From positions 952 to 64,951 of the forward strand of contig JAUVLG010000003.1 of the NCBI GenBank assembly GCA_030595835.1: 64,000 nucleotides of DNA, given 5' to 3'. This stretch comes from Candidatus Eiseniibacteriota bacterium (GTDB lineage Bacteria > Joyebacterota > Joyebacteria > Joyebacterales > Joyebacteraceae). The number at the start of each line of letters is the position of its first letter. Position 1 is the first letter of the stretch. A model generated the notes under the pieces. The model saw only the letters and a program-made list of their open reading frames with translations. It searched no databases and was not told where the DNA came from. Below are positions 7,428 through 59,470 of this stretch, piece by piece. A program made the translations under genes and the position numbers.

Positions 7428-7464
7428 GCTCGAACCCTCACGGTCTTGCGCGCCTCCGCCGGCG

Positions 7465-9812: not shown

Positions 9813-9813
9813 A

Positions 9814-11825: not shown

Positions 11826-11897
11826 GAGGCTGCCTCCAGACGTCCACACTTGGAGAACCGTGCGCTCTCCACGCGGCCGCCCGTCAGTACCGGACTG

Positions 11898-28326: not shown

Positions 28327-28351
28327 GAGGATTCCTCCGGTCGCGCTTGTC

Positions 28352-28780
28352 TCATCTGACTGGTCCCGACGCGTCCGTCGTCCGGCCGGAGTCTGCCGTC
28401 GACGCCGCGTGCCCACCGACCGTCGCCTTGTCCCTGAGACCATCGAGAGTCACGGGTCCGATGCCCTTGATATCGAGCAGATCGTCCAGCGTGGAGTATC
28501 TGCCCCGAACCTCGCGCCGGTACACGATCGCGGACGCCCGCACCGGGCCGACTCCCGGCAGACGAACCAGGTCGGTAACATCGGCGGTGTTGATGTCGAC
28601 CGGCCACGTGGGCAGTTGGTCGACCTCGGGCGCCTGCCCGTGCCGGCCGGATGCCCCGCCGAAGTCCGGAATGGCGGAGGGGAACACCCTCCCAGCCCCC
28701 ACCACTGCCGACCCGACCAGAAGCGACACTGCCAGGAACAGCACTACGACGCGCTCCTCGCGCGTGAATACACCCCTCAT
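28352..28780 (-). CDS. comEA: ComEA-family competence DNA-binding protein (signal-anchor plus tandem helix-hairpin-helix).
   Basis: DINTADVTDLVRLPGVGPVRASAIVYRREVRGRYSTLDDLLDIKGIGPVTLDGL is the canonical ComEA HhH pair. An N-terminal membrane anchor is present. Confidence 0.8.
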   Translation of the reverse strand: MRGVFTREERVVVLFLAVSLLVGSAVVGAGRVFPSAIPDFGGASGRHGQAPEVDQLPTWPVDINTADVTDLVRLPGVGPVRASAIVYRREVRGRYSTLDDLLDIKGIGPVTLDGLRDKATVGGHAASTADSGRTTDASGPVR

Positions 28781-28815
28781 CCCATCCTCCCATCCCGGAA
28801 CCTAGAATCTAACGG

Positions 28816-28836
28816 ATTGCAAAACGCAATGCAAAT
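28816..28836. promoter_or_regulatory. AT-rich palindromic element ATTGCAAAACGCAATGCAAAT upstream of comEA; candidate operator.
   Basis: Inverted repeats ATTGC-N5-GCAAT and TTGCA-N8-TGCAA sit in an unusually AT-rich patch about 35-55 nt upstream of the comEA start codon. Confidence 0.3.
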
Positions 28837-28890
28837 CAAAGTTGGGGAAGCCCGACCTGGCGGGCAGGAAAAGCCACGGGGAGGTATGTA

Positions 28891-30765: not shown

Positions 30766-31460
30766 CCGTTCCCTCCGTGGGCTCCCCGGGCGCTCGGGAT
30801 CCGAGCGCCGGTGGTCGTCCGGTGGCCGGCCATCCGCACGATTCTCGGGATAACGGCCGGCGCCAGCACCACAAACACGATCGTGTTGGACACAAGATGC
30901 ACGATGGAGAAGAACGCGTTCGACAGGATCACTGCCAGTGCTCCGGTGCGAAACTCGGGGCTCATCACTGCCAGACCCACAATGACGGCGGCCTGATAGA
31001 CGGCGGTCAGGACGAAACCCAGCCCGCCTGCTACCAGGGGTAGAGCCCGGTGGCCTCCGCCGGCTCGGCCAACCGCCGCCGCGTCGAGCGACCCTCCCTG
31101 ACCCGAGACCCCCTTGGCCGTGCCGCGCCACAGAGGAGCCGTGATACCACCTACCAGCCCTGTGAACGCCGACGCCGCGAGCTGCGCCGCCAGCATCGTG
31201 GGCACACCAAGTCCCGACCCGTAAGGATTGGCTCCGGAGTAGATGGCCATGGCGAGCACACCAACGAGCGCGCCGCGCCACCGGCCCAGGACCACGCCGG
31301 ACACGAAGATCGTGAACGTCACGAGTTCGACGTTTGGCACGGACAGAAGGAGAAAACCAAGCGCGGCCGCCAGGGCGACGAAGATGGCCGTGACGGCCGT
31401 CCCCGAGGTCCACAGCGCGCGCCCGGAATCCCGGGAGCTAGTCAAGTTTCTCTCGCTCAT
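30762..31460 (-). CDS. Polytopic membrane protein, possibly an ECF-transporter S-component-like or BioY-like protein.
   Basis: It has about 5-6 hydrophobic helices (AVTAIFVALAAALGFLLL, FTIFVSGVVLG, AMAIYSG...). The start is tentatively MSERNLT at 31460. Confidence 0.45.
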   Translation of the reverse strand: MSERNLTSSRDSGRALWTSGTAVTAIFVALAAALGFLLLSVPNVELVTFTIFVSGVVLGRWRGALVGVLAMAIYSGANPYGSGLGVPTMLAAQLAASAFTGLVGGITAPLWRGTAKGVSGQGGSLDAAAVGRAGGGHRALPLVAGGLGFVLTAVYQAAVIVGLAVMSPEFRTGALAVILSNAFFSIVHLVSNTIVFVVLAPAVIPRIVRMAGHRTTTGARIPSARGAHGGNG

Positions 31461-31860
31461 GCTTGAGACGGTCCGGGGTGACGTCGTCCAGCTGAGTGCC
31501 CGTGTCGCCGGGCACACCGATGGGCTCTATGTACTGCGAGATCTCGGCCCGATCGTCCAGTGAGAGCATATTCCAATTGCGCTGCACCTCCAGGATCAGC
31601 GGTGTCCCGCACTTGGACGGCACGTCGCTCTCGTACTCAGGAGGAAGACTGGTGGAGTCGAACATCGCGTAGGTCTTGTACAGAAGCCCGGTGGAATATT
31701 CCAGGACTCCGGATCTGACCGCCGCCTCTATCAGCTCGAGCGAACTCATCGGCCGCTCGCCCGTGGAGTAGGTCACCTGGCTCTCGCCCGAGACCGGCTC
31801 GGCGTCGGGCGCGCGGCATGAGCAGCCGGCCGCCAGGAGCGCGACCACGGCGATAGCCAT
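31438..31860 (-). CDS. Small lipoprotein of unknown function.
   Basis: The N-terminus MAIAVVALLAAGCS has an LAAGC lipobox after a hydrophobic stretch. The start is uncertain (ATG at 31860 or an upstream non-ATG). The upstream 108 codons of the track ORF are Arg-rich with no homology. Confidence 0.45.
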   Translation of the reverse strand: MAIAVVALLAAGCSCRAPDAEPVSGESQVTYSTGERPMSSLELIEAAVRSGVLEYSTGLLYKTYAMFDSTSLPPEYESDVPSKCGTPLILEVQRNWNMLSLDDRAEISQYIEPIGVPGDTGTQLDDVTPDRLKHEREKLD

Positions 31861-40727: not shown

Positions 40728-44595
<3,868 letters not shown>

Positions 44596-44613
44596 CGTGT
44601 CTGCCGCCTTCCT

Positions 44614-47600
44614 CTAGAAGAACGCGTTGACCCGCAGGTCCAAGGTGTGAACCGGGTCCCCGTCCGGGCTGGCAGTCCCGTAGTACGACAGCGAGCCCGT
44701 GAGGAACTGGTTGAATCTGTAGTCGCCGGACATCCGCCACTCCACGCTCCGTCCTGCTTGACGCCCTTCGGCCAGATAGGAGTGGTCGACCAGTGAGCCG
44801 CCGGACGCCTCGATCTCGATGCGAGTCACTGAAGCGGAGAGAGCGCCCCGCCCCGCGAGCCTGTACGTCACGTTCGGCGTGACCTTGAGCACGGTGACAC
44901 CCACGCCCGCGAGCGCCTCATCCTGCCGACCGACCGAGATCGTCATCCTGGCCTCCAGATCACCGGGATTTCTGTAGCCCGCCTCGCCCAGAAGAGAGCA
45001 CTCATCGACGACGTAGCTGTCGCCAACCTGGGAGTCCACCTCTCGCCTGCCCGCGTCCCCCTGCAAACGATAGGTGACGCCGCCGGTCTGCGTCAGTTTG
45101 ATGTCGGCGGTGCCGGAGCGCTCCTTCCTCTCCGTGAGATCGTTCGAGTAACTCCTGTCCAGGACGTCCTTCGTGTGTAGCGCGAGCCGGAGCGAGAACG
45201 AACTGCCCGAGGACAGATAGCGCGCCACGTGACGGCCCGACATCTCGCCGCGGACCGTCTCGTCGCCCATGATGACCGCCGGGTCCAGCAGATAGAGCCT
45301 CTGCTTCGCGTCCGTCGTCGTCATCTCACGGAGCTTCAGATCGGTCGTCACCGTCAGCCCGGAGAGGAACCGTCCAAACGCGGTCGGCTCCGGCATGGAC
45401 CGCCCGCCGCGACGGCGCGCGCCGGGCTTGAGCTTCCACCTGGTGCTGGCTTCGACCCCGGTCACGGGCTCATACACGCCGGTTCTGACGATCCGCGTCA
45501 CCTCGACGCCGTCCTCCTCAAAGACCTCCTTCTCCTTCTTCTCCACCTCGGTCGCAGTGACGGAGTATCGGATCCGTCCCGTCAGGCTCCCGTCAAGCGA
45601 TGTGTGGTCGAACCTGACACTGGCGAGGTCGTACCTGGAACCAGGGTCAAGGAAACCCTTCTCAAACTGGACCTCGCGGCGCACGACGTTCCCCTCCAGA
45701 CGAAGCTTCTCCCACCCGGTCGCGGCCAGCTTGTACTCCTGCGTCTGCGTGATGGACGCCCTCACCCACCCCGAGCCGTCCGTGCGGTCGGTCAGACGGC
45801 GAGCGTACGACGCCCCGAACGAGACCGGCCCTGCCTTCGCACTCTCCATGGACGCGCCGTACTCATCGTACCGCTCATCCGCGTCTTCGTCGTGAGCGTA
45901 GGAAGCGCCCGGCCGCACCGGGCCGACCTTCTGCTCGAAACCGCCGCGGTAGAGCGTGCGCTCCCGATGGATCTCCTCCCCGCCGCCGGTCCAGCGCGAC
46001 TTCACGAATCGTCCCGCACTCCAGAGCCTCCCGCCCTCCGTGGGATGCACATCGGCGGAGAACTCGGTCTTGCTCGATTCGAGAACGTCGTCGCGCGTCA
46101 GGTACGCGTGCGAGAGCTCCACGCGCCCTCCGCCACCCAGCAGCAGTGAGGACGTACCCTCCAGCAGCTCTTCGCCCTCGGGAATCGCAAGTCCCTGTAG
46201 CTCCCATCGCTCTTCATAGCCCAGCTCGCGGAACCGACCGACGCCGCGGAACCCGCCGGCAACCCGACGCGCGTCCAGCGAGAACCCGAGCTCCGCCCCA
46301 TCGAGCACGCCGACATCGATCCGCGGCAGCGCGGCTGAGAACACAGACGCGTTCCCCAGGTTGTCGTCGTCGTCCAGTGAAGAGTAGGTGTTGGCGTCGA
46401 AATCGGAGACGGCCGCCGACGCCTCCACGTACCCCCCGCGTCCGAGGTCAAGCCGTCCGTCTATCACCGCGAGCCCGTGGTCTGAAGGCCTGGGCAGATG
46501 CCGACCGAGGCGGTAGTCTCCCTCTCCCTCGCCAACGTAGTCGTAGTGCCCGGCGACGTAGTCGTAGTCGTAATCCCCGCCCTCCTCGCGCTCGAAGTGA
46601 AGATTGTAGCTGCCGGAGCCGGGGGGAACCGCGTACTCGAAGACACCGGGCGAGACGAGATCGTAGTCGCCGTTGCCGACACCGACCGAGTCGATGCCAT
46701 CGTCATGCGCCAGCTCAGTGTCGTCCCCGGCGGCCTCGAGCACGGCGAGTTCCTTGGACGAGAACCCGGCGGATGCAGCAGCACCCCTGTCATCCAGCTC
46801 GCGGAAGAACGAAAACCCGATTCCGGCCGAACCACCCGGACTCGCCAGCGAGACCCTGCCAACATAGGTGTCGCGCTGGTAGTCGCCGGAGCTGAATTCG
46901 TAGTCCACGGTGATCTCGCTCTCGCTGACGATGGGCCGGTGCTCCGTGAACTCGATCGCCCCTCCCCCGTAGTCGATCACGTAGTCGTTGTCGCGCCCGC
47001 GCGTCATCTTGACTCCATTGACCCACACGCGCTCGCTGCCCGCGACAACGGAGATGCCGGTCCCACTCGACTCATCGGTCAGCAAGTAGGCACCCTGCTT
47101 CCCGTCGACGCCGGGGAACGTCAGCGTTCTGAACTGACCCGCGGAGCGCGCACCGGCGAGCGTGACATCGGTACGACCGAGCGAGGCGGTCACCATCGCT
47201 CCGGTTTCGTCTCTGCGAAAGTCCGCGAGAGGGCCCCCGTTAATCTCAAGCGCGTAGTCACCCATGGTGGCGGAGACGTTCTCGCCCTCTATCTCGATGA
47301 GGACCTTGTCGAGGGCCCGGAGTTCCTCCGTGTCTCCCTCCGGGACGAGCGGCGTGTTCTGATCGGACAGGTAAGCGACCACCGATACGTCGCGCGTCAC
47401 GCGACCAGAGACGTTCAGGCGTAGCGACTGCTCGAGGCTCGCATCGCGATTCGACCCCACGGTGATGCCGAACGTCTTGGCCCCGCCAATCGAGAGCCCG
47501 TGGGAGAGCGGAGGCGGGGCCGCGGGCGCGTCGGGGCGGACGAGTTGCAGGGCGTCCTCCGCAAAGCCCGGGGGCAGCACGGCCAGGGACTCGAGGACGG

Positions 47601-48018
47601 CACGACGGTGGATCTTCTTCAGATTCAGGGGCATGAAGCGGTAGGTGATGGTGACGGAGCCGGCGGCGATCGCGGACACGACAGTGATGATCCCACGGTC
47701 GTAGTCGATCTCGTAGTCAGCGCCGCGCGTGAGGGGCTCGCCGTCAACCCGGACGCTGTCGCTGCCCGCAATGATGAACACGTCGGGCAGCTCGACTCCG
47801 TTCACCGCGTCCGCGGGAAGCACCGACAGCTCGCGGAACCCGCCCCTTCGAACAACGGAGTCCGCGTGAGACGCCGGCGCGAGCAGATACAGAAGGAGCA
47901 GAACGGCGAAGACCGAGCCCACGGAGCCGGCCCGACGCACCCGCCGCGCACGCGCTCGCGAATCTACCACGCCTACCGCGCGCGGCACGCCAGAGCGAAT
48001 CCTAGCGTCTTGAGGCAT
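44614..48018 (-). CDS. Very large (about 1135 aa) predicted outer-membrane beta-barrel protein of unknown function.
   Basis: It has a signal peptide (RRVRRAGSVGSVFAVLLLLYLLAPASHA) and a C-terminal aromatic barrel signature (LDLRVNAFF). An acidic Tyr/Asp low-complexity insert (EGGDYDYDYVAGHYDYVGEGEGDY) is present. The start is uncertain and overlaps the end of the NHL gene. Confidence 0.55.
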   Translation of the reverse strand: MPQDARIRSGVPRAVGVVDSRARARRVRRAGSVGSVFAVLLLLYLLAPASHADSVVRRGGFRELSVLPADAVNGVELPDVFIIAGSDSVRVDGEPLTRGADYEIDYDRGIITVVSAIAAGSVTITYRFMPLNLKKIHRRAVLESLAVLPPGFAEDALQLVRPDAPAAPPPLSHGLSIGGAKTFGITVGSNRDASLEQSLRLNVSGRVTRDVSVVAYLSDQNTPLVPEGDTEELRALDKVLIEIEGENVSATMGDYALEINGGPLADFRRDETGAMVTASLGRTDVTLAGARSAGQFRTLTFPGVDGKQGAYLLTDESSGTGISVVAGSERVWVNGVKMTRGRDNDYVIDYGGGAIEFTEHRPIVSESEITVDYEFSSGDYQRDTYVGRVSLASPGGSAGIGFSFFRELDDRGAAASAGFSSKELAVLEAAGDDTELAHDDGIDSVGVGNGDYDLVSPGVFEYAVPPGSGSYNLHFEREEGGDYDYDYVAGHYDYVGEGEGDYRLGRHLPRPSDHGLAVIDGRLDLGRGGYVEASAAVSDFDANTYSSLDDDDNLGNASVFSAALPRIDVGVLDGAELGFSLDARRVAGGFRGVGRFRELGYEERWELQGLAIPEGEELLEGTSSLLLGGGGRVELSHAYLTRDDVLESSKTEFSADVHPTEGGRLWSAGRFVKSRWTGGGEEIHRERTLYRGGFEQKVGPVRPGASYAHDEDADERYDEYGASMESAKAGPVSFGASYARRLTDRTDGSGWVRASITQTQEYKLAATGWEKLRLEGNVVRREVQFEKGFLDPGSRYDLASVRFDHTSLDGSLTGRIRYSVTATEVEKKEKEVFEEDGVEVTRIVRTGVYEPVTGVEASTRWKLKPGARRRGGRSMPEPTAFGRFLSGLTVTTDLKLREMTTTDAKQRLYLLDPAVIMGDETVRGEMSGRHVARYLSSGSSFSLRLALHTKDVLDRSYSNDLTERKERSGTADIKLTQTGGVTYRLQGDAGRREVDSQVGDSYVVDECSLLGEAGYRNPGDLEARMTISVGRQDEALAGVGVTVLKVTPNVTYRLAGRGALSASVTRIEIEASGGSLVDHSYLAEGRQAGRSVEWRMSGDYRFNQFLTGSLSYYGTASPDGDPVHTLDLRVNAFF

Positions 48019-49000
48019 CAGCGCCATAGACAATCTCTATCAGCCGCACGCGCCCGGTCTCGCCGTCAAGTGCGACCAGCTCGCCCGCGGGACCCAGTGC
48101 AATGGCGGTGAAACGAAAGCCCGTATCGCCCGGAAGCTCCGTCGTGTGAGGACCCCCGCCGGCGGGGAACGCCAGTATGCGACCGTGCCTCTCGTCGACC
48201 ACCAGGACATTCCCGCGCGCATCGAATGCGACGTCCCCGGGCTCGAGCGTGTCTGGAGCTGACAGCGAGTATAGAGGAGCACCGAACTCGTCGAAGATCT
48301 CGACGGAGAACCGGCCGGGATCAGCCACGGCGATTTCTCTCGAGGGACCAACCGCCACGTCGCTGGGCGCAAGGAGTCCTCCTTCGCCCACTCCAAACCA
48401 CCCGACGGGCGTCGTGGTCTCGTCGAACTGCGAGAAGGACAGCACGGACTGCGTGTCTGCGTCGACGAGGAGAAGCCCTCCGGCCTTCACGACCGCGATG
48501 GCCACGGGGCTCCCTGCCTCGTCCTCCGCGACCACCAGGTCGACGTAGTCGCCCTCGACGTCGTAGCGAGCCACTCGGCGGTTGCCCTCATCGAGCACGT
48601 AGACGTAGAACCCCCTGTAGATGCTGACGTCGGTTGGAGTGTCCAGCCGGTCCTCGTCCCAACCGTAGCCTCCGAATTCCTGGAGGAGCGTTCCGTCACG
48701 CCCGAGGACGAGTACTCTGTGGTTACCGGTGTCCGCGATGACCACGTTTCCCCGGTGGTCCACGGCCACTGCCGCAGGCGCTCTCATACCCAGCTCGCCC
48801 GTGCCCGGAAGCTCATCAATTACGAGAAACCCCGTTGCGATGCGCGCGCGCCACGACGAGGGCACGGGACGCGGCACGGCCGCGTCGCCGGCGCGCACTG
48901 GGGGCGCCGCAGCGGCGACCGCGGCGGCCGTCACGACCGTTACGGCGCCGACCACCGTCAGCAGCGGCTGCCGAAAAAGACGTCTCCAGTCGGTCCACAT
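48002..49000 (-). CDS. NHL-repeat (six-bladed beta-propeller) secreted protein.
   Basis: It has a signal peptide and repeated ...GNVVIADTGNHRV..., ...FYVYVLDEGNRRV... and ...GNVLVVDERHGRI... NHL-type blades. Confidence 0.7.
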   Translation of the reverse strand: MWTDWRRLFRQPLLTVVGAVTVVTAAAVAAAAPPVRAGDAAVPRPVPSSWRARIATGFLVIDELPGTGELGMRAPAAVAVDHRGNVVIADTGNHRVLVLGRDGTLLQEFGGYGWDEDRLDTPTDVSIYRGFYVYVLDEGNRRVARYDVEGDYVDLVVAEDEAGSPVAIAVVKAGGLLLVDADTQSVLSFSQFDETTTPVGWFGVGEGGLLAPSDVAVGPSREIAVADPGRFSVEIFDEFGAPLYSLSAPDTLEPGDVAFDARGNVLVVDERHGRILAFPAGGGPHTTELPGDTGFRFTAIALGPAGELVALDGETGRVRLIEIVYGADASRR

Positions 49001-49064: not shown

Positions 49065-49913
49065 TCAGAACGGCACCTCGAGCGTCGCTCGGGCGCCGAC
49101 GTCGCTGCCGGAGATCAGCGGCACTACGGAGATACGTGCAACGGGCTCACCGTGGACACCGGCGTTGTACCGCCTGGCCATCCACGCGCTGTCGATCCCG
49201 GAGACGGCCCGATTGAGTATCGCCACGCCCACCATGTAGAAGGCGTTCCTGTCCGCGCTGGAAGCCGCGTGCCGGAGTTCCCGGTATGCGTAGAAGCTGT
49301 CCTCGGTGCCCCAATCCCACGAGAGGTCGCCGTAGTACCCGTTTTCCGCGATGTACGCCCGCTGCGCATCGCGGTCGTACGGGAAGAGACTCCTAGCATC
49401 ACAGGCGATCGACTGATTGTAGCTGTCGTCTCCCTCGCTACGAATGTAGTTTCCCATATCACTGAGATAGCCGCCGTCGGCCCCCGCGTCAGCTCCCGCG
49501 AAGATCTCGGCGTGCTCCCTGTAGTCATCCTCCAGCAAGCTCTCCTGGATCCGGAACGTGCCGTATGCCGCCCATATGGCCACCTCCGACGCCATGAACC
49601 AGCCCCCACGGGACGTGTCACCCACGTACATTTCTCCCCAACCGGGCACGATGCATGACAGGAGAAGCGCGAGCATGGGGTTCTTCTCGTCCGGGCCACC
49701 GCCGCCGTGGGACACACGGGAGGAGAGTCTCACATCCAGGGCCGCCAGCGGCGTCTCATCGGACAACGACAGACCCGACCGGGAAAGACAGACGCCGACG
49801 TATCCCGCTTTCCGCGAGCGCTCCAGCGGAACGCCTCCGTCCGCGGCGACCGGCGGCGGAAGCAGGAGCACAAGCACCAACAGGAAGACAGAGACCGTCG
49901 TTCGGTTCTTCAT
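49065..49913 (-). CDS. Secreted hypothetical protein, paralog A of a tandem pair.
   Basis: It has a signal peptide and shares the ...S(C/V)(I/A)VPG(W/S)G(E/Q)... G...(W/Y)...A(S/A)E(V/I)A(I/L)W(A/G)... core and a VxPLISG...ATLEVPF-type C-terminus with the adjacent gene. Confidence 0.5.
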   Translation of the reverse strand: MKNRTTVSVFLLVLVLLLPPPVAADGGVPLERSRKAGYVGVCLSRSGLSLSDETPLAALDVRLSSRVSHGGGGPDEKNPMLALLLSCIVPGWGEMYVGDTSRGGWFMASEVAIWAAYGTFRIQESLLEDDYREHAEIFAGADAGADGGYLSDMGNYIRSEGDDSYNQSIACDARSLFPYDRDAQRAYIAENGYYGDLSWDWGTEDSFYAYRELRHAASSADRNAFYMVGVAILNRAVSGIDSAWMARRYNAGVHGEPVARISVVPLISGSDVGARATLEVPF

Positions 49914-50764
49914 CAGTACCTCATCGTTAGCGCGTAGGTGAGTCCGTCACCGTTGTCAGCGACGCCGAACTCGAGGCCGAGATCCGCGACCCGATCGCTC
50001 GGGGACGTGTCGCCCCGGGCCGTCAGGAATGCGTCAACCGCCGCCGTCACGTGGTTGAGAAGCGCGGCCATCATGGCGTAGCGCGCCTGTCTCAGGTGCA
50101 GGTTGCTGTCGCCGCGCATGTCGACGTACGTGTCCCGGAACGCCAGGTCGTCATCGCTGTAGTCGTCCCATTCAACGTCAGGATCGTACTCATCGCCGTC
50201 GATGTTCCACCATCGCCAGTAGGTTCTGTATTTGCCGATGTCCTCGTAGTACTCCTGCGTGCCGTACGTGGCGAGCGGGCGGCAGAGAGTCTCGTCGCCC
50301 GGCTGGCAGTCAGCACACCTCTCATTGTACCAGTCGGTGTAGGCGTCGAAGTCCCAGTTGCCGTCGGCGAAGGCCTCGTACTCATCGCGCTCGTCCAGCC
50401 CTTTGCTGTCGAGCAAGTAGAATCCGCCCCAGAGCGCGATCTCAGCCGCGAGGTAGATGTAGCCGCGCGCTTTGCCCTGAATAAGCTGCCCCGAACCCGG
50501 GACGGCGACCGAGGCGAAGAACATCAGCGTGGGATCGTGCCCGGTGGCCCCCTGCCCCACTCCCCCCGCACCAACCTCAAGCAGTTCATCACGGGCGTCG
50601 AGCGACGAGATGAGAACCAGCTCCTGCGCGACGGAGTGCGCGCGCGCGCCCTCCCCGTCCGGCGTTCCACCACCGGTCGGCAGCGCGCCGGACGCGGGTT
50701 GTACGACCACAAGCAGGCTCACGGCCAGCACGACAACCGAGGGAAATCCCATCCGCACTCCCAT
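49913..50764 (-). CDS. Secreted hypothetical protein, paralog B of a tandem pair.
   Basis: It has a signal peptide. FASVAVPGSGQLIQGKARGYIYLAAEIALWGGFYLL is homologous to paralog A. An acidic Trp/Tyr/Asp-rich middle region is present. Its TGA shares one nucleotide with the ATG of paralog A. Confidence 0.5.
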   Translation of the reverse strand: MGVRMGFPSVVVLAVSLLVVVQPASGALPTGGGTPDGEGARAHSVAQELVLISSLDARDELLEVGAGGVGQGATGHDPTLMFFASVAVPGSGQLIQGKARGYIYLAAEIALWGGFYLLDSKGLDERDEYEAFADGNWDFDAYTDWYNERCADCQPGDETLCRPLATYGTQEYYEDIGKYRTYWRWWNIDGDEYDPDVEWDDYSDDDLAFRDTYVDMRGDSNLHLRQARYAMMAALLNHVTAAVDAFLTARGDTSPSDRVADLGLEFGVADNGDGLTYALTMRY

Positions 50765-53700
50765 CTATCTGATGACCGCGACCTTCATCGTCTTCGATTC
50801 CGTCCTGGGCGTTCCGCCGGACCACACGTAGTACCCATCGAGCGGGTCGGTGACCTCGACGCGGACGATGTAAAGGCCGCTCGCCACCCCCGATGTGCTC
50901 CATCTGATCTCGTTGACCGTGAGATCGCCCTCCCGTTCAAATCGGGCGACGACCTCTCCGGCGACGTCCAGTATCTCGATCTCGATGTCCGCCGGCTCAT
51001 CGAGAAAGACCCTGACGGTGAGATCGGACCTCCTGGCAGGGTTCGGGTAGCAGTAGGTACGTTCCGGCGACAGCAGATCCCCGGTCGTCACCGGATCGCC
51101 CGGGAGGATCGAGTCGGGATATGCTCCCTCTCCGGATGCGCTCCCGCCGTCGGTGGACCAGATCATGGTCCCGGCCTCGTGCGCGTATGGCAATCCCATC
51201 AGGAGAACTCGCCCCGAGGCACCCACGACCAGGATGTCCAGCTCGCCGTCATTGTCAATGTCACCCGCCCACGGCGTGCCGAGCGCGGGGCCGGACGAGT
51301 ACGGCCAGCCGGGAGTCAACTCCCCGCTGACGGCGTCGCAGAGGAACATGCTCCCGCCCGGACCGGTCGACAGCACGTCCGTCACGCCGTCGCCGTCCAT
51401 GTCGCCGATGAGCGCAGACGCGCCCGCGGGGCGCGTGCTGTCGCCCCCGTCAGTCACGAGAGGCCAGTTCTCCACGTAGGTGCCGTTGGCCCGCAATCCG
51501 GCGACGCCGGCGGGCCCTGCCGGAATGACGATCTCGAGATACCCGTCTCCGTCCAGGTCGCCCAGCGACGGCCGGGCATCAACTCCCTTGCGAAGGTCGA
51601 CGGGCCACCCCGGAAGTTCGTTGCCGGATGCGTCCCAGACGTGGACGATCCCACCGGAACCCACGGCAACGATCTCAGGCCTTCCGTCGGGCAACCGGTC
51701 AATATCACCGACGACGATCTGCGCCGTCTCGCGCTCCCACGCATCAACGACCAGGGGCCATCCAGCAACGGAACTGCCGTCAGCGTTCAGGGCCGCGATC
51801 CATCCGCGGTTGGTGGTCGACATCAGGATCTCCAGGAAATCGTCGCCGTCCAGGTCTCCCGCGGCAATACACACGTCATCAAGAACCAGGTGACCGAACG
51901 AATAGGGCGACGCACCCAGGTGCCTGCCCTCGCCATCCACGACGGTGAGATTCCCTCCACCGGACGCCACAGCGATCTCCAACCCCTCCGTGTCATCGAA
52001 GTCGGAGGCAACCGGCACCGAGCTGGCGGGTCCGTCCAGCGCCAGCGGGTACTCGATAGAGTGTAGATCGGCGTACCCATCGGTGTCGCTGTCCGTATGG
52101 TCCCAAACATACAGCGAACCGGCCTCGGAGGCCACGATGACCTCAGCGTCGCCGTCACCGTCGAGATCGGCAACCGAGGGCGATTGTGTGATCCCCCCGG
52201 GCGCCACGGCGAAGAGACCGGGCACTCCGCACATCGGGATCATCGGCGTCCCGTCGTGATGCCACACGTAGACGTTGCCACTCGCAGCCGCAACGATAAC
52301 CTCGCCGTCACCGTCACCGTCCAGATCGGCGACCCGCGGCGTCATCGTCCCGAACGACTCGTCCAGGTCGATCGGCCATCCGTCCTTCCACCGGTCGAAC
52401 CGGAGGTCCATTGTCATGACCTCTCCGGGGTCGGATATGTTGCTCACGGCAACGTAGGTCTTGCCCCCCATGTTGGTATCGGTCGAGGGATAGGTATCCC
52501 ACGAGAACGTCCCGTTGTTCTCCGCAAAGAAGGGATCGTACCTGCTGCCCGACCAATAGAAGCTGTTGATATTCCCCAGGTCCATGATGCCGTCGGCCTC
52601 TTCGACGGCCACACCAAGCCTGTGGCGGTCAGCGTTGACGACGTTCCAGGGAAGGAGCCCCGGCTGAACGCGCGTGTCATCGATGTGGTAGATGAGCATA
52701 CCCGGCCCGGGAAGCAGGAAATCGTATTCGTGGTTCGGTTGGGGCGGATCCAGGTAGGGATCCACGGGACCCAGCACGACACCCCGCTCCTGGTCAATGC
52801 CCACGACGAGCTCGGTTCCCTGGCTGTCCGGCAGGTCGTCCAATCTGTTCTCAATGAGGAAGTACTCGTCACTCGTGATGGGTATCTTGAAGAGCTTGAA
52901 CCCCGGTCTCCTGAGCTCGGTCGCCGTGACCCGGATGTCGTCGGCGGCGTCCAGCAACACGACGGGGTCGAGCCACCCCATGTACTCCTTGGACCACGCG
53001 CACGGCGATGCCGGCAGCAACCCATACGCCCATCCCCACGGCGTGTTCATACCTATGCTGCCGCCGGAGTCCATGATGCCCCACTGGCCTATGGCCAGGA
53101 AGAAGTTGGAGACATTGTAGAGATCCGGCAGTCCCAGGATGTGAGCCACCTCGTGCACGAGCGTCCCGTTTAAGACCATGGTCATCCCGTCCTGACTCGA
53201 AGTCTCGGGCATTAGCGCGGCGCCCCACACCTCCGTGCTGCCTTCGTTCACGAGGATCGGCTCACCAAGCGAGATGTGCGCGGACGGAAGATCAAACGGG
53301 GAATCGTAACCGATGTCGCTCTGCCAGTCGGCACCCGCGTGGAACAGGATGAAGCCATCGTACTGGGAGAAGTCGATAGAATCCGTCGTATCGGCGGCCG
53401 CGAAGGCGTCTCTCGTGAACTTCTCCACCTGGCTCACATACCAGACCTGCTCCTCCGAGTAGTCGTGGTAGTAACCCATGTCATGCGGAAGCACGTAGGC
53501 CGACTGCGGATCCAGAGGCAAGACATCAGACTCGATCGTCAGATGATCGTAGGAAACCGACGAGTAGTAGTTGGCGAGCGCCGTCATGTGGAGCTCGAAG
53601 TACTCCCTGTCGTGCGGCGGCCCGTCGAACGTCGCCCCGTCCCACTCCGAGTAGTCGAAGTTGCCGTTGCCCGTACTGAGAGGGTCGCTGTCCGGAAGGA

Positions 53701-53962
53701 ACTCGACGCGCAAAGCCAGAAGCCGGATGGTCGTTCTGCCGTCCCGCGAACGCCCCCGCGCGGCAGCGAGCTCGATCGCGCCGATCTTGGGCACATCATC
53801 AACGAAGACCTTGGGAACACCTCTGGTGACGGTGCCGTCCGGCGGAAGGCCCTTCTCGCAGATCAGGACATCGCCGGCGGCGGACGGTAGGGAGAGCGCC
53901 ACGATGACCACTGCGGCCGCGGCTCCGGTGGAAAAGCGACCGAGGTTACGGGGTCGGGTCAT
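50765..53962 (-). CDS. M6-family (immune inhibitor A-like) zinc metalloprotease fused to FG-GAP/VCBS integrin-like repeats and a T9SS-type C-terminal sorting domain.
   Basis: It has a signal peptide. TLVHEVAHILGLPDLY carries the HExxH motif. Multiple DLDGDG(D/Y)xE(V/I)(I/V) FG-GAP repeats are present. The C-terminus CYPNPARRSDLTVRVFL...GLYIVRVEV...KVAVIR resembles the Por-secretion tail / FlgD Ig-like domain. Confidence 0.8.
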   Translation of the reverse strand: MTRPRNLGRFSTGAAAAVVIVALSLPSAAGDVLICEKGLPPDGTVTRGVPKVFVDDVPKIGAIELAAARGRSRDGRTTIRLLALRVEFLPDSDPLSTGNGNFDYSEWDGATFDGPPHDREYFELHMTALANYYSSVSYDHLTIESDVLPLDPQSAYVLPHDMGYYHDYSEEQVWYVSQVEKFTRDAFAAADTTDSIDFSQYDGFILFHAGADWQSDIGYDSPFDLPSAHISLGEPILVNEGSTEVWGAALMPETSSQDGMTMVLNGTLVHEVAHILGLPDLYNVSNFFLAIGQWGIMDSGGSIGMNTPWGWAYGLLPASPCAWSKEYMGWLDPVVLLDAADDIRVTATELRRPGFKLFKIPITSDEYFLIENRLDDLPDSQGTELVVGIDQERGVVLGPVDPYLDPPQPNHEYDFLLPGPGMLIYHIDDTRVQPGLLPWNVVNADRHRLGVAVEEADGIMDLGNINSFYWSGSRYDPFFAENNGTFSWDTYPSTDTNMGGKTYVAVSNISDPGEVMTMDLRFDRWKDGWPIDLDESFGTMTPRVADLDGDGDGEVIVAAASGNVYVWHHDGTPMIPMCGVPGLFAVAPGGITQSPSVADLDGDGDAEVIVASEAGSLYVWDHTDSDTDGYADLHSIEYPLALDGPASSVPVASDFDDTEGLEIAVASGGGNLTVVDGEGRHLGASPYSFGHLVLDDVCIAAGDLDGDDFLEILMSTTNRGWIAALNADGSSVAGWPLVVDAWERETAQIVVGDIDRLPDGRPEIVAVGSGGIVHVWDASGNELPGWPVDLRKGVDARPSLGDLDGDGYLEIVIPAGPAGVAGLRANGTYVENWPLVTDGGDSTRPAGASALIGDMDGDGVTDVLSTGPGGSMFLCDAVSGELTPGWPYSSGPALGTPWAGDIDNDGELDILVVGASGRVLLMGLPYAHEAGTMIWSTDGGSASGEGAYPDSILPGDPVTTGDLLSPERTYCYPNPARRSDLTVRVFLDEPADIEIEILDVAGEVVARFEREGDLTVNEIRWSTSGVASGLYIVRVEVTDPLDGYYVWSGGTPRTESKTMKVAVIR

Positions 53963-54011: not shown

Positions 54012-54992
54012 CTAGAACGCCGCCGTCAGCGAGAACCTGAACGGTCGCGACAGGTCCTCGTACTGCGGCACCTGGGCGAAATCAACTTCGAAGTTTCCGA
54101 ACTTGAGCCCCATACCGAACGAGAAGTCCGTGACACTGCCGTCCTTGTCGTAGACGTACCCTCCTCGAAGAGCAAGGAGGTCGTAGTACCGGTACTCCGC
54201 GCCGACATTGAGAACCACACCGACCGTCTGGTCCGCGATCTCCTCGACGATGATCAGCGACTTGTTGTAGTCAACCGATACGGTCAGCTCGTTCATCTCG
54301 TCGCTCAGGAGCTTGTAGGACGTTCCCACCTTGAGATTCCTGGGCAGCGGGTCCTTCTGCTGTTCGTCGATGTAGGCGATTCGGGGACCGATGTGCTGCA
54401 GCGCACCACCCACGTTCCACCTGCCATCCATCAGCTTCCACAGAGCCCCGAAGTCGGCGGCGAAGGTCGTCCCCGACCCCTCGATCCCCTCGGTGGTCGC
54501 CGAGGCCGGCGCCAGGAAGGTGTAGATGAACTTGAGGTTGAGACCGACGCCCAGGTTCTCGCCGATCGTCGCCCCGTACGCAAGGGACGGGATGATCTCG
54601 TACGAATGGAAGATGACGCCCGGGACACCGTCATCGTCCATCGCCTGCTGCTCGCCGTACGTCACGTAGATGACCGACCCTCCGACCGTTCCCAGCCCCT
54701 CGACCTTCATCGCGTAGGCGGCGTACTCGTAGTAGACGTCTCCCCAATCAGGCATCAGCTGCGAGTGCATGAGCGAAACATTGTGCGTCTGCTCAAGGAA
54801 TGCGAGCCCCGCGGGGTTCCACCAGCATGCGCTGGCGTCATCGGCAATCGCCACGAAGGCGTCGCCCATGCCCGCCGGGCGCCCGCCCGGGTGAATCAAG
54901 AGCGACTGTGCGCCGCCGATAGACGTTGCGGCCGCGGACACGGACATCAGCACTACCAGAAGCAGCGCTATGGGAATCCTGTTTCTCAACAT
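54012..54992 (-). CDS. porV: PorV/FadL-like outer-membrane beta-barrel (candidate T9SS shuttle protein).
   Basis: It has a signal peptide (MLRNRIPIALLLVVLMSVSAAA) and an N-terminal GMGDAFVAIADDASACWWNPAGLAFL motif as I recall for the PorV/UPF0164/FadL-like families. The C-terminus SLTAAF is a barrel signature. It sits immediately downstream of the C25/PorU-like gene. Family assignment is from memory. Confidence 0.45.
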   Translation of the reverse strand: MLRNRIPIALLLVVLMSVSAAATSIGGAQSLLIHPGGRPAGMGDAFVAIADDASACWWNPAGLAFLEQTHNVSLMHSQLMPDWGDVYYEYAAYAMKVEGLGTVGGSVIYVTYGEQQAMDDDGVPGVIFHSYEIIPSLAYGATIGENLGVGLNLKFIYTFLAPASATTEGIEGSGTTFAADFGALWKLMDGRWNVGGALQHIGPRIAYIDEQQKDPLPRNLKVGTSYKLLSDEMNELTVSVDYNKSLIIVEEIADQTVGVVLNVGAEYRYYDLLALRGGYVYDKDGSVTDFSFGMGLKFGNFEVDFAQVPQYEDLSRPFRFSLTAAF

Positions 54993-55057
54993 CGCGTGAA
55001 CGTCCCCTTTCAACGACAGCCGGCGGGCAGGCTCAAGCCCTGTGGACAACCCTCCGA

Positions 55058-58000
55058 CTATCTCATTATCACGGCTCTGCCTATGACCTCGGCCTTGTCT
55101 CCACGATACTCATCGGACACCGCGTGAATCCTGTACAAATAGACGCCGTTGGCCAGCTCGTCACCCTCGGAGTCCCTGCCGTTCCAGTAGACCTCGTTGG
55201 CGCCCGCGGTGCCGACGTGGTCGAGGTCGCGAATCCGCCGGCCGCCCACGGTGAAAATATCGATCGTCACGGCAGCAGCCACGGGGAGCTGGAACATGAT
55301 GAGAGTTCCCTCGCCGCCCCCGCCCTTGAACGGGTTCGGGTAGTTGGCAACGTCGCGGATCGTGAACTCGGCGGACGACACGACCTCGAACTGGAGGCTC
55401 TTGGAAGAGCGGTTACCCATGTTGTCGCCGGCAGCGACTGAGATCGTGTGATTCCCGAATCCCAGCGACGGCAGCGGATAGACGATGGCGCCTTCACGGA
55501 AGCTGTCAAAATCGCACGCGAACAGGTCCGTGACGTCCGTCGAATCTTCTCCACCGTTGACCAGAAGGACTATGCCGTCTGCCGGGTTCCGGTTGACCAG
55601 ATTGATACCGTTGTCGTCCGACAGCCGTATCGTGAGCTCGTCGCCCGGCAGAACCGACGTTCCTCCGCTCTCGAACGTCATCGAAATGTCCGGCCCCCTT
55701 CCGTCCAATGTATCCTCGACGAAGGAGACGTTCCAATCTTCAAGGGAGAACGAACCGTCGATCTCGCCGTCGTAGAAGTAGGCGCGGATGCGGCCCTTCG
55801 GGCCCTCATCGGCGACCGACGACACGACGAACTCGGCCGAGAACTCGCCCTCTTCATCCACGTCAGCTGACCCCTCGAACAGAACCTCGCCCGGGAGCTC
55901 GTACTCAACGTGATATTGGGACTGCGACTGAATGTAACCGCTGGTGTCCGCGGTGTCGAACACCCGGACCAGCGCCACACCGCGCGCGTCCGCCGTCGAG
56001 CCGGCGTTCGTGCCGGAGACCGTGACGACCTGCTCGCTCCGCCTGCGTATCGGCTCAGCGCCGTCCTGGTCTATCTCTCCCGAGCCGCTCGGGGACACGA
56101 ACATCGTGGCGGGGTCACCGATCAGCGAGAACTTGGTGTTGTTTGACCAGATGGAATGGTGCGTCGCTGTCTCGATGAACCCAGCCTGCAGCGCCTGACC
56201 GAAGTCCAGGAACACCGTCGGCGCCTCCCGCTGCTCGCCGAAGGTCTTCCTGAGGAAACTCCTGTTGAGCGCCGAGTTGTATCCGGAGCCCGAGTCTCGC
56301 GTGCTGCCGATCGACGCTATCGACCCACCGACGGGCGACTTGACCAGAAGCTCGCCGACCGAGTCCCCGCCCGGCATGTCGAACTTGTTCAGTCGGCAGG
56401 ATGCAGCGAAGAAGAGAGGCAGCCCGTCGATGTTCTCGAGCTTCGGGATGTCATCGATGAGGAAGACGAGTTCGTGAGCCATCAGTAGCTCGTTGCCGTG
56501 CCCCGTGTAGTTGAGTATGAGGGCTCCGTCGTTCCATGTCTTCAGGAGATCCGTTCGCGCGGCCGGCTTGTGCCACGCTGCGTCGAACTCGTACTCCATC
56601 AGATAGATCTTCCGCCTGTCGAGCGACCAGGGGAGAACCTCCCGGCATATCTGCTCGGCCTGCTGCGTGTGCGAGTACTCGAAGTGCGGGTTAGTGTCGC
56701 CGTGGTTATCCCGCCACTCGTCGTCACCTACCAGGACAACCGTGTTCTTCCAGAGACCCTGCACGGTCTCAGTCTCGTACCTCACGATCTTGTCGATGAT
56801 CGTGGACAGCTCACCGGTGGACCGGGCGGACAACCTGCCCAGCGCCATCCCCGGCTCGTACTGGCTGACCGCGTCGAAACCGACGAACCAGAAGTCAGTC
56901 GGCCAGTACGCCGAGCCTCCCGTGTAGTACGTCGGCACGTAGCAGTCGATGCCCGTCGTCAGGTACTGACGGTAGTCGGACGTGGCGTCGCCCACCAGAA
57001 GCGCGTGCGTCGGCGGCACGTCGGCGTTGTCGGAGAGGAACTTGAGATAGTCTCTGATGGCCACCGGATCGACGACGCCCCACGAGAACTCGTCGTAGAC
57101 GTCGGACACCCTGACAAGACGCACATCGTAACCGCCGCCCGCGGCGGTCTCCCGGTAGTTCTTCAGTCGAAGCGCCTCGCTGTAGAAGCCGTCGTAGACG
57201 ATCATGACGTAGCCGATATCGGTGTCGGACCTCAGACCCTCGTGAATGTCCCTCTCGATGCCGGGCGTCAGGTAGCCGCCGTCCGACACGGCGAGGTACG
57301 ACGCGGTGTCGGCCACGTCGTCCTGGAAGATCGCGCTGTAGCCGCGTGACGACGCAGACGTCGTGACGCCGGGAACGGTACTCACGGTGTAGCGGTCCTG
57401 GATCTTGAAGACGGAAACGTCGCCGGTCTCGAAACCCTCCAGAGAGTACTCGAGCACTCCGGTCCGTCCGGAACTCCCGAACGGCAACTGGTCGTCGTTG
57501 ACGCCGTCGTCGGGGTCCATGTCCGCCCAGAGCGCACGCCAGTACTCGAACTCGAACCAGTCTATGAGTATGGTGTCATCGTCGTGGTCCTCGTCCGCCC
57601 TGGGGACGAAGACATCGAACTCATTGTAGGTCCCCGAGTTCCCCGGAATGAAGTCCCTGAATGAGAGGCCGTCCACTTCGAAGACGAGAGTCGCGAAGCC
57701 ATCCCACTCCCCGAGATAGGCCTCGACGTCGTTCAGGTAGAAGTAGGCGATGTGGTCGGGATTGACAGCGTAGTTGGTGGAATTGCCGTCGACCCGGGCC
57801 CTGATGAGACCGGTCGAATCGGTCACCACGTGCGTCAGCTTCTCGTAGGAAAGATAGTGCTCAGCCACGCGCGGCAGCTTCATCTCGCGCATGAAGAAGT
57901 TATCACCGCGACCCTGGAACTCGTACCGGTTCTTCTCGTAGTGCGCCCTCGCCCAGTAGTCGGTCACCTCAAGCGCGCCCGGCTCGTCGTTGAGGTCGTC

Positions 58001-59113
58001 GACCTGCATTCTGAGGGGCGGATCGTCGAAGGGACTCCCCTCGCTCTCCCAGGTCATCCAATAGACGGCCGTCCCCGCAAACCGGTTCTCGTAGTACGGC
58101 TCGTCCGGGGAGTCGAGCATCATCTGGTCGGCCCATGCGTCCGTGCCGACGGCGTAGAAAGCCACGCGGTCGCCCGGGTCGAACGCATCATCGTCACCTC
58201 CGACGACGGCAATCGTACACTCGGTCATCCAGTCGGGCCGCGGTTCGGTAACGTCGGGAGGAATCGAGAGCCCGGTCCCCGTGAACACCCGGATCGACGC
58301 CGGGTCGACCGTGGCCGGGTCCACACCCGCCGCGGACAGGTCGTCGTGCCCGACGCCGTAGATCCCTCTCCGCTCGACAGTCAACTTGAGCCAGTTGGAG
58401 GACGTGTGGAAGTACTCGTCCGGGCGACCTCTCACGGGGCCGGGACGGGTCCGCCACGCTCTGCCACTCTGGTAGTTGGCGAGCACCGACCGGTAGAGCC
58501 TCTCCCACCGCTCGGACGTCCTGCGAGGCGGCACGCCAGCGCGCACGCCGTGGAAGGTCAGGGAGATCTCTATCGCATCGTGGGAAACGAGCGTGCCTCG
58601 CACGGGATCGACCTGGCAGGGATGGAATTCAATGTGAACCACTCTCTGCCTGGACAACCACCGGGGTTCGGTCATGGACGCAGCCGCCCACGGCCAAAGA
58701 CCCTCTCGCGCGTACGGCTCGCCCTCAACGTACTCATATCTGCTCACCTCGCCGTCTTCAACCTCGACCGTGGTGAGCGCGGGAAGGATCCTGACGCCCT
58801 GCCGGGCGGAGCCCCCGCTCGCCGACACCGCGAGCTCGATGTCCCTGCAGTTCGGTACCGCGAGTGTCAACCGAACGACGGGGAGATCGGGGGCGCCCGG
58901 AACGCCCATCGCGTCCGCGCCCTCTATGTACAGGGTCGTGTACTCACGGCCACCTATGGTCACACGACGGTGCGTCGCCGCACCGGGCCGATAGACAACG
59001 ACGATGCCATCATCACTCGAGGACACCACGCTGGGTGCGACTGCCGGAACACCGGTAGCCAGAAGAGCTATGACGAGCGCCGCCACAATGGCCGGCGCGT
59101 GTTTCCGCACCAT
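55058..59113 (-). CDS. porU: C25-family (gingipain-like) cysteine peptidase with a T9SS-type C-terminal domain; candidate PorU-like sortase/signal peptidase.
   Basis: It has a signal peptide. The His-Gly (YTGHGNELLM) and Cys (FFAASCRLNKFD) catalytic motifs match a caspase-like C25 fold. The C-terminus NYPNPFKGGGGEGTLIMFQLPVAAAVTIDIF...YLYRIHAVSD...VIGRAVIMR is a classic Por-secretion tail. It is adjacent to the porV-like gene. Confidence 0.7.
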   Translation of the reverse strand: MVRKHAPAIVAALVIALLATGVPAVAPSVVSSSDDGIVVVYRPGAATHRRVTIGGREYTTLYIEGADAMGVPGAPDLPVVRLTLAVPNCRDIELAVSASGGSARQGVRILPALTTVEVEDGEVSRYEYVEGEPYAREGLWPWAAASMTEPRWLSRQRVVHIEFHPCQVDPVRGTLVSHDAIEISLTFHGVRAGVPPRRTSERWERLYRSVLANYQSGRAWRTRPGPVRGRPDEYFHTSSNWLKLTVERRGIYGVGHDDLSAAGVDPATVDPASIRVFTGTGLSIPPDVTEPRPDWMTECTIAVVGGDDDAFDPGDRVAFYAVGTDAWADQMMLDSPDEPYYENRFAGTAVYWMTWESEGSPFDDPPLRMQVDDLNDEPGALEVTDYWARAHYEKNRYEFQGRGDNFFMREMKLPRVAEHYLSYEKLTHVVTDSTGLIRARVDGNSTNYAVNPDHIAYFYLNDVEAYLGEWDGFATLVFEVDGLSFRDFIPGNSGTYNEFDVFVPRADEDHDDDTILIDWFEFEYWRALWADMDPDDGVNDDQLPFGSSGRTGVLEYSLEGFETGDVSVFKIQDRYTVSTVPGVTTSASSRGYSAIFQDDVADTASYLAVSDGGYLTPGIERDIHEGLRSDTDIGYVMIVYDGFYSEALRLKNYRETAAGGGYDVRLVRVSDVYDEFSWGVVDPVAIRDYLKFLSDNADVPPTHALLVGDATSDYRQYLTTGIDCYVPTYYTGGSAYWPTDFWFVGFDAVSQYEPGMALGRLSARSTGELSTIIDKIVRYETETVQGLWKNTVVLVGDDEWRDNHGDTNPHFEYSHTQQAEQICREVLPWSLDRRKIYLMEYEFDAAWHKPAARTDLLKTWNDGALILNYTGHGNELLMAHELVFLIDDIPKLENIDGLPLFFAASCRLNKFDMPGGDSVGELLVKSPVGGSIASIGSTRDSGSGYNSALNRSFLRKTFGEQREAPTVFLDFGQALQAGFIETATHHSIWSNNTKFSLIGDPATMFVSPSGSGEIDQDGAEPIRRRSEQVVTVSGTNAGSTADARGVALVRVFDTADTSGYIQSQSQYHVEYELPGEVLFEGSADVDEEGEFSAEFVVSSVADEGPKGRIRAYFYDGEIDGSFSLEDWNVSFVEDTLDGRGPDISMTFESGGTSVLPGDELTIRLSDDNGINLVNRNPADGIVLLVNGGEDSTDVTDLFACDFDSFREGAIVYPLPSLGFGNHTISVAAGDNMGNRSSKSLQFEVVSSAEFTIRDVANYPNPFKGGGGEGTLIMFQLPVAAAVTIDIFTVGGRRIRDLDHVGTAGANEVYWNGRDSEGDELANGVYLYRIHAVSDEYRGDKAEVIGRAVIMR

Positions 59114-59448
59114 CAGCTGTCCTCCGATGCTGCCCCCGTCAGGGCGAAACCCACGTCATTCCTGCTGACAACGCAGACGACGCGCCCTTCCTCGCCGATG
59201 ACGGGGATAGGTACAAGTTTCCTGTTAGCCATGAGCACGGCGACCTTCATGATCGAGGTCGAGGAGGCGCTTCTCCTCATCCACTACAGAGACGCCGGTT
59301 ATGCGGTATTTCTTCATCAGGGCGGCGATTTCAGCCACGTTCGCTGCCCGGCCCGATTGACGGCTTACCTCGCCGAATCCAGAATCCCGAACACTGCCCC
59401 GACGGACTCGGCCGCGAGCAGTGCGCTTCGGTTCTTCTCATCCCTCAT
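59113..59448 (-). pseudogene. CBS-domain-pair gene disrupted by at least two frame changes (remnant or assembly frameshift).
   Basis: Three consecutive minus-strand reading frames give MRDEKNRSALLAAESVGAVFGILDSAR*, then AEIAALMKKYRITGVSVVDEEKRLLDLD, then IMKVAVLMANRKLVPIPVIGEEGRVVCVVSRNDVGFALTGAASEDS*. The last two are recognisable CBS motifs. The final TGA shares its A with the porU ATG (TGATG). Confidence 0.4.
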
Positions 59449-59470
59449 CAGTTCACTCACGCGACCGCTC

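Follow-up and report, generated by a model that had tools for sequence, protein, structure and literature searches.

Introduction

Type IX (Por) secretion is held to be specific to Bacteroidota by most of the experimental and survey literature. PorU of Porphyromonas gingivalis (PG0026, 6za2), a representative of Bacteroidota, has, besides its C25 peptidase domain, Ig-like domains further downstream and a C-terminal domain (CTD) that is retained, and its gene lies beside porV. PorV of Flavobacterium johnsoniae (6h3i chain F) is a FadL-like barrel with a conserved N-terminal motif and a C-terminal beta-signal, and SprA/Sov (6h3i, 8gl6) is a very large single-chain outer-membrane beta-barrel. Here, we analysed 64,000 nucleotides of contig JAUVLG010000003.1 from a bacterium of Candidatus Eisenbacteria (this whole 64 kb stretch is referred to as the window), in which adjacent porU and porV genes encode proteins that resemble their two namesakes in the listed features, the CTD of PorU being predicted by homology. 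With a probability of roughly 85%, we consider that this pair forms, in this organism, the module for attachment and sorting in a type IX secretion system (T9SS) pathway. The same run of genes encodes a very large outer-membrane protein of 1139 aa, which is compared with SprA below.

A mini-review of 2024 assigned T9SS to the Fibrobacteres-Chlorobi-Bacteroidetes (FCB) superphylum (PMC11205867), and genome papers have reported enzymes bearing Por CTDs in Melioribacter (Ignavibacteria) and Chitinispirillum (Fibrobacteres), with T9SS machinery genes left unmentioned. Our literature search returned no paper that deals with T9SS in Eisenbacteria, and with the module described here the range of the sorting half of the system widens by a candidate phylum.

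PorU and PorV

All substantial open reading frames (ORFs) of the window were scanned against Pfam, NCBIfam or both. The porU gene (55058..59113, minus strand) starts with ATG and encodes a C25 cysteine peptidase of 1351 aa, the predicted C-terminal signal peptidase/sortase of T9SS. Its signal peptide is followed by a gingipain-type propeptide (residues 29-214; Pfam Propeptide_C25, 5e-17), the catalytic domain (635-1004; Peptidase_C25, 1.6e-85) and a predicted Ig-like CTD (approximately 1257-1351). The NCBIfam PorU model NF033707 gave 523.5 bits (cutoff 420) and was covered almost completely, with residues 237-1349 corresponding to model positions 3-1094 of 1095. The best match among solved structures was P. 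gingivalis PorU, 6za2 (HMMER full-sequence E 1.8e-35), over an alignment of about 700 residues that reaches into the CTD and ends about 20 residues short of both C-termini. The catalytic His and Cys of the C25 family are kept, 'LNYTGHG' and 'AASCRLNKFD' of the window protein being aligned with 'LNYAGHG' and 'ATCDFANYD' of 6za2.

The tail of PorU matched FlgD_ig at residues 1266-1333 with a borderline score (27.2 bits against a cutoff of 27). It is 30% identical to the CTD of the M6-like protease encoded next to the pair (E 5e-6), and the motif 'YPNP' placed exactly 94 residues ahead of the stop is found, among the ORFs of the window, only in these two proteins. Judged by homology alone, the tail is a predicted C-terminal sorting domain.

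The proteins from Candidatus Eisenbacteria and P. gingivalis differ at the N-terminus. The window PorU carries about 200 additional residues with the propeptide PF08126 (PDB 4ief, E 1.1e-7), which lies outside the PorU model starting at residue 237, whereas P. gingivalis PorU lacks this propeptide and begins at the equivalent of residue ~231. The propeptide probably keeps PorU latent until it is removed. It is common to nearly all of the Eisenbacteria-like PorU homologues listed.

Besides these homologues, a C25 peptidase 24% identical to PorU was noted in an ORF of about 2200 aa (measured from stop to stop) in a Candidatus Poribacteria metagenome-assembled genome (MAG; locus L010, 7683-14327). 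C25 proteins of 2100-2170 aa with propeptide and FlgD_ig, similar to the one from Poribacteria, are encoded on contigs of 3-6 Mb, and these proteins may be either sortases of the PorU kind or cargo proteases.

The porV gene (54012..54992, minus strand) encodes a PorV-family outer-membrane beta-barrel of 326 aa with a signal peptide and a C-terminal F. Its ORF is open as far as TTG 55049 (54012-55049, 345 aa); however, ATG 54992, preceded by an AAAGGGGA Shine-Dalgarno sequence and located 65 nt beyond the porU stop, is the more likely start. The sequence-only reading of this DNA had given the barrel both a length of 326 aa and a distance of 8 nt from the porU stop, and the two are incompatible, since the 8-nt gap belongs to TTG 55049 (345 aa) and the 326 aa to ATG 54992 with its gap of 65 nt.

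The product scored 236.4 bits with the PorV/PorQ family model NF033709 (cutoff 90) and 77.1 bits with Pfam PorV PF19572 (cutoff 27). Lower scores were obtained with the models for PorQ (80.4 bits), PorV2 (64.4) and Toluene_X/FadL (35.5, cutoff 29.7), the last match being restricted to the N-terminal region shared with PorV. The sole match in the PDB was PorV of F. johnsoniae, 6h3i_F (E 2.8e-25).

A candidate cargo protein

Downstream of porV, a gene for an M6-like metalloprotease (50765..53962, minus strand) encodes 1065 aa, in which a signal peptide, an M6-like domain and an FG-GAP beta-propeller region are accompanied by a type-A CTD. The sorting domain passed both TIGR04183 (30.9 bits against 23) and PF18962 (30.5 against 27), and such a type-A domain makes the protein a likely cargo. 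The M6 domain scored 83.7 bits, and the zinc motif HEVAHILGLPD (HExxHxxGxxD), read from the translation, is intact.

The protein resembles its nearest NCBIfam family, NF052323 (T9SS-dependent M6-like inactivated metalloprotease), in having an M6-like N-terminal domain together with a type-A CTD; the match, at 371 bits, stayed under the cutoff of 600 and fell into four stretches along the 1043-position model. In contrast with that family, named as inactivated, the window protein keeps its zinc motif and is therefore probably an active protease.

Conservation of the pair and its host lineage

The closest homologues of PorU, with 76-81% identity, come from MAGs of Candidatus Eisenbacteria, which NCBI taxonomy enters under 'Bacteria candidate phyla'. 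Candidatus Eisenbacteria are usually put in or near the FCB superphylum.

The order porU-porV recurs in Eisenbacteria MAGs, in which PorU is 57-81% identical to that of the window, and in three far more divergent lineages. At one of the divergent loci (L012), identity to the window counterparts is 30% for PorU and 39% for PorV, and both homologues pass the respective models (557 bits for PorU, 200 bits for the PorV family). The M6 gene is missing from this otherwise syntenic locus. The module is conserved across deep Eisenbacteria-like lineages and passes curated thresholds, and the PorU that it includes is a variant carrying a propeptide of gingipain type.

The sequence-only reading of the pair is supported, each part of it that could be tested agreeing with these data. 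The adjacency of porU and porV that it had pointed out is kept in all lineages compared. Its PorV-like barrel, for which a FadL transporter had been named as the refuting outcome, matched PorV profiles well above FadL, with PorV as the match in the PDB. The adjacent M6 protease it called cargo-like carries a CTD above the TIGR04183 cutoff, and the placement of the organism outside Bacteroidota is supported by the homologues from Candidatus Eisenbacteria MAGs with the same gene order.

The predicted pathway and points against it

The pathway is drawn from family membership, the catalytic residues, the predicted CTD of PorU and that of the M6 protein, the signal peptides and the gene order, and every step of secretion and sorting is modelled by homology to Porphyromonas and Flavobacterium. 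Proteins with type-A CTDs, the M6-like metalloprotease among them, would be exported to the periplasm by Sec and would traverse the outer membrane via a translocon. The PorV barrel would then pick them up by their CTD and hand them to PorU, a surface C25 peptidase that would be anchored to PorV through its own CTD, which stays uncleaved. PorU would remove the CTD of the cargo, which may subsequently be released or moved onto a surface glycolipid. The 'functional T9SS-like pathway' of the sequence-only reading is something that we, too, infer from sequence.

Several observations weigh against assigning the pair to type IX secretion. The TXSScan survey detected T9SS only in Bacteroidetes (PMC4793230), and many reviews likewise confine it to that group. 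No porK/L/M/N, sov/sprA, porQ/Z/W/T/P/E or gld gene was found among the ORFs of the window. The tail of PorU had no match to the Por_Secre_tail models TIGR04183 and PF18962; hence, of the C25 peptidase with a Por secretion tail put forward in the sequence-only reading, the peptidase stands, being above the curated PorU cutoff with its catalytic His and Cys kept, and the tail lacks the model match. PorV scored 163.7 bits with the equivalog model NF033710, under the cutoff of 250, and has 326 aa as compared with 402 aa in the F. johnsoniae chain. Its shortness and sub-cutoff score mark it as a divergent, loop-shortened member of the family. As to the components absent from the window, canonical ones encoded elsewhere in the genome most likely serve as translocon and energy source, and the 1139-aa barrel is the less likely candidate for the translocon.

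By its PorU-PorV pair and type-A CTD cargo, a known system is extended to a candidate phylum; the extension is real but fairly ordinary, and it brings two modest variations, the gingipain-type propeptide on PorU and the short PorV. In three Eisenbacteria records, GenBank gives the PorU homologue the name 'type IX secretion system sortase PorU', and an exact-sequence look-up with the window PorU itself returned no record. Given these names and the FCB assignment of the 2024 mini-review, the pair is less new than the sequence-only reading supposed. Automated public annotation already covers it, and the genes for the NHL-repeat protein, the giant barrel and the Omp85-family protein are the more interesting lead. 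The prediction for the organisms is that Eisenbacteria would present CTD-tagged hydrolases on their surface or release them, the example here being a large M6-type metalloprotease, which bears on the role that they play in the ecology of sediments and soils.

The conserved gene run

In the window, the pair opens a run ordered as porU, porV, M6 protease, two DUF5683-like paralogues, NHL protein, 1139-aa protein and Omp85 protein. Signal peptides were predicted on all eight proteins (8/8), and the intergenic gaps do not exceed 65 nt. Those Eisenbacteria contigs that reach far enough share the order dnaE, a gene for a small outer-membrane protein, accA, a gene for a 143-aa membrane protein, porU, porV, the M6 gene and the genes for the 283-aa, 282-aa, NHL and 1139-aa proteins. 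The divergent loci have porU, porV, an M6 gene that is present or not, the two paralogues, NHL, the big protein and Omp85. The big proteins of loci L012, L016, L032 and L083 are 28-33% identical to that of the window, and that of L022 is the closest, at 53%. The linked lineages also share an unrelated flanking order (dnaE, ligA, thiC, helicase, hut), so that the adjacency within the run may be inherited and not functional.

Upstream of porU, the window has just a 357-nt spacer (59114-59470), whereas relatives (L005, 8963-10000) have two extra small genes between the gene for the 143-aa membrane protein and porU. From a reading of their sequences, we take one of these to be PTS-EIIA-like (152 aa) and the other to encode a CBS-domain protein (156 aa).

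The two paralogues are a 283-aa protein (49913..50764, minus strand), distantly DUF5683-like, and a 282-aa protein (49065..49913, minus strand), DUF5683-like below threshold; both have signal peptides. They are 27% identical to each other (E 8e-8) and both carry the motif 'PGxGxxY/I'. They were found only where porU and porV adjoin, and in related loci the 283-aa gene always accompanied porU-porV. The 283-aa protein had no family match in the Pfam and NCBIfam scans. The 282-aa protein matched DUF5683 with an E-value of 0.05, the values for its scanned homologues ranging from 1.4e-5 to 4e-3. These homologues (n = 70) are all unnamed or 'hypothetical', and their named sources are mostly Eisenbacteria. 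An exact-sequence look-up with the 282-aa protein returned a 1.6 kb contig only. Its AlphaFold2 model is of moderate confidence (pLDDT 71.6) and mainly helical with a C-terminal beta-hairpin; compared with PDB folds it had no significant match, the best being a PorM periplasmic domain at chance level (E 0.44). Our literature search found no paper discussing DUF5683 in a bacterial or secretion context.

The predicted giant barrel and its partners

The 1139-aa outer-membrane protein (44614..48033, minus strand) has a signal peptide and the C-terminal sequence '...RVNAFF'; its start is uncertain, TTG 48033 being the limit of the ORF. It had no match in Pfam, and neither Pfam nor NCBIfam gave one to the LptD, OstA, TamB, porin or TonB-dependent receptor families. 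A word-indexed search with this protein returned 136 matches, none of them Pfam-annotated and all 'hypothetical' wherever named. A full profile scan extended the family to 5913 representative clusters at E<=1e-3 (at least 2573 at E<=1e-30). Lengths within the best 150 clusters are mostly 1050-1240 aa, a few truncated entries excepted, and the named members belong to Eisenbacteria, Latescibacteria and Ignavibacteriaceae.

The AlphaFold2 model, calculated from an alignment of 35 sequences, is confident (pLDDT 82.2, pTM 0.69). The modelled protein is almost all-beta: approximately 36-40 long strands, linked as hairpins, fill the stretch between residue ~180 and the C-terminus, and two small beta-domains are also present. 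A barrel of this size is known only for SprA, which has 36 strands. In a Foldseek search against the PDB, the SprA chains 8gl6_A, 8gl8_A, 6h3i_A and 6h3j_A occupied ranks 1, 2, 3 and 5 with E-values of 2.3e-10 to 1.6e-7, but their TM-scores were low (0.22-0.29) and barrels of BtuB, SusC, SlpA, MtrB and LptD came next.

At the level of sequence, the SprA model TIGR04189 was the top NCBIfam family for 28 of 35 members of the family. On the window protein it reached 38.1 bits (cutoff 200), and the match was confined to residues ~78-121 and 325-380, both of which correspond to model positions 595-653. A segment scan limited it to the two small domains of about 50 aa, which also resemble phage tail proteins, and the segments of the barrel matched nothing. 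SprA was not retrieved from PDB sequences by the single sequence, by the family profile or by a profile of the small domain, and a tblastn search of plasmids for SprA found nothing. As the match lies only in the small domains and under the cutoff, the protein is not a member of the SprA family by any curated criterion.

The protein shares with SprA the architecture of a very large single-chain outer-membrane barrel and, in the Eisenbacteria lineage, the linkage of its gene to porU-porV. It differs from SprA in having half the length and being almost without cap or insert domains; moreover, its gene is usually accompanied by those for an NHL propeller and an Omp85 protein, and SprA is not so encoded. 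We regard it as a giant barrel with a predicted size similar to SprA and as a candidate, not a proven, SprA-like pore.

Two other identities were considered for this protein and rejected. A TamB-like reading, suggested by the adjoining Omp85 gene, is at odds with the lack of a TamB/DUF490 match, with hairpin-connected strands of 10-26 residues and with top folds that are all closed barrels. The LptD reading lacks an OstA/LptD family match, and LptD ranks far below SprA in Foldseek.

Upstream of the barrel gene lies the gene for the NHL-repeat beta-propeller (48002..49000, minus strand; 332 aa, signal peptide, Pfam NHL 1.7e-19), and downstream that for the Omp85-family protein (42802..44595, minus strand). 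The latter, of approximately 565-597 aa, combines POTRA domains with a barrel (Pfam Omp85 8e-24, POTRA 1.1e-16), and all BamA and TamA models stayed under their cutoffs.

In total, 94 genomic contexts were analysed with locally built hidden Markov models. The NHL gene was found directly upstream of the barrel and on the same strand at at least 27 loci of diverse lineages, with a median gap of 4 nt and often with overlapping stop and start (L014, L017, L018, L020-L099). The Omp85 gene was directly downstream in 21-23 loci.

In the window, the Omp85 ORF is in frame with the barrel gene, and between them lie only the TAG stop of the latter and a short spacer that contains the ribosome-binding site AGGAAGG (44590-44620). 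At locus L012, the same two genes overlap in different frames.

What the barrel may be

We lean, at somewhat better than even odds, towards the NHL protein, barrel and Omp85 protein forming an outer-membrane housekeeping module of their own, which might be a large porin, an anchor of the surface layer or an assembly substrate that comes with a dedicated Omp85 and a BamB-like propeller. This module would simply adjoin porU-porV, which would use a canonical SprA/PorKLMN machinery encoded elsewhere. The genomic contexts speak for it. At least six loci with at least 8 kb of upstream sequence, one of them a Latescibacteria MAG, have NHL and barrel genes, usually followed by Omp85, without porU/porV, and this arrangement is kept in Latescibacteria and other lineages with no porU/porV within 8-10 kb. 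Furthermore, 23 loci share the context of the single locus labelled Ignavibacteriaceae, in which the barrel stands alone amid housekeeping genes. The very large size of the family is what would be expected of an essential envelope protein, and the SlpA, MtrB and LptD-type barrels are also among the Foldseek matches. On the other side, sequence matches to LptD, OstA, TamB, porin and TonB-dependent receptor families are missing, SprA is still the best match both structurally and at the family level, and the linkage to porU-porV holds where the proteins of the cluster have diverged to about 30% identity.

We consider it unlikely, albeit worth pursuing, that the whole run (porU, porV, the DUF5683-like pair, NHL, barrel and Omp85) encodes one self-contained outer-membrane machine for secretion and attachment. 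Eisenbacteria and related uncultured lineages would then run a stripped-down, type IX-like pathway, in which the pore would be a cap-less barrel of approximately 1140 aa, half the size of the SprA-type translocon of 2300-2400 aa, with NHL as its plug, partner or chaperone, Omp85 as a dedicated insertase, and PorV, PorU and the DUF5683-like pair supplied by the same operon. The confident model with its long antiparallel strands, the SprA chains at the top of Foldseek and TIGR04189 as the leading family are consistent with such a machine. So is the tight packing with porU-porV in the window and in L012, L016, L022, L032 and L083, whose barrels are about 28-53% identical, and so are the CTD enzymes of Ignavibacteria and Fibrobacteres reported with T9SS machinery genes unmentioned.

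Against it stands the nature of the SprA match, which comprises only the ~50-aa beta-domain present twice and matching phage tail proteins as well, and the failure of the family and small-domain profiles to retrieve SprA from PDB sequences. The TM-scores of 0.22-0.29 have other large barrels close behind. Most of the family has no porU/porV nearby, as seen at the NHL-barrel(-Omp85) loci and the 23 barrel-alone loci of Ignavibacteria type, and in the linked lineages the housekeeping order is shared too, so that the adjacency may be inherited. The cluster also has no energising component. If the run did encode such a machine, the barrel family would be the missing translocon for many CTD proteins outside Bacteroidia, or an ancestral form of SprA, and a minimal SprA-type pore would offer a far smaller model for the working and evolution of the type IX translocon.

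Very improbable is the proposal that the pair has no part in sorting, the C25 protein being a secreted gingipain-like protease (a cargo) and the barrel a FadL-type channel for hydrophobic substrates: the propeptide missing from P. gingivalis PorU and the Toluene_X/FadL score above the Pfam cutoff would fit it, but the C25 protein covers the PorU model over its full length and exceeds the cutoff while gingipains match weakly (E 2.4e-5), PorV scores far above FadL, whose match is confined to the shared N-terminal region, and porU-porV adjacency is conserved in all lineages compared.

Other genes of the window

The window has a G+C content of ~62-69% along its whole length and carries nearly all of its genes on the minus strand. 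Apart from the run described above, the genes identified are housekeeping or metabolic ones and include dnaE, accA, ligA, thiC, a DinG-like helicase gene and hut genes. Further genes encode a sigma-54 activator, a sensor kinase, Obg, DprA, a lipid A acyltransferase, a 2-oxoacid:ferredoxin oxidoreductase, SucCD, Ndk and a formate-dehydrogenase-like complex. The three subunits of the 2-oxoacid:ferredoxin oxidoreductase adjoin sucCD and ndk at 6800-11900. This oxidoreductase and sucCD are the sole basis for the rTCA-like gene content mentioned in the sequence-only reading; no ATP-citrate lyase was seen in the window, and a match to Citrate_synth_N stayed under the cutoff (56.6 bits against 83).

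A scan for promoters and terminators gave no signal exceeding background. The region 28000-31600 is distinguished by a positive AT skew and by uncertain gene calls. ORFs without family assignment occur there on both strands, at 28085-29134 (plus), 29293-30486 (plus) and 30762-31526 (minus), and beside them lies a comEA-like gene (28352-28801, minus strand).

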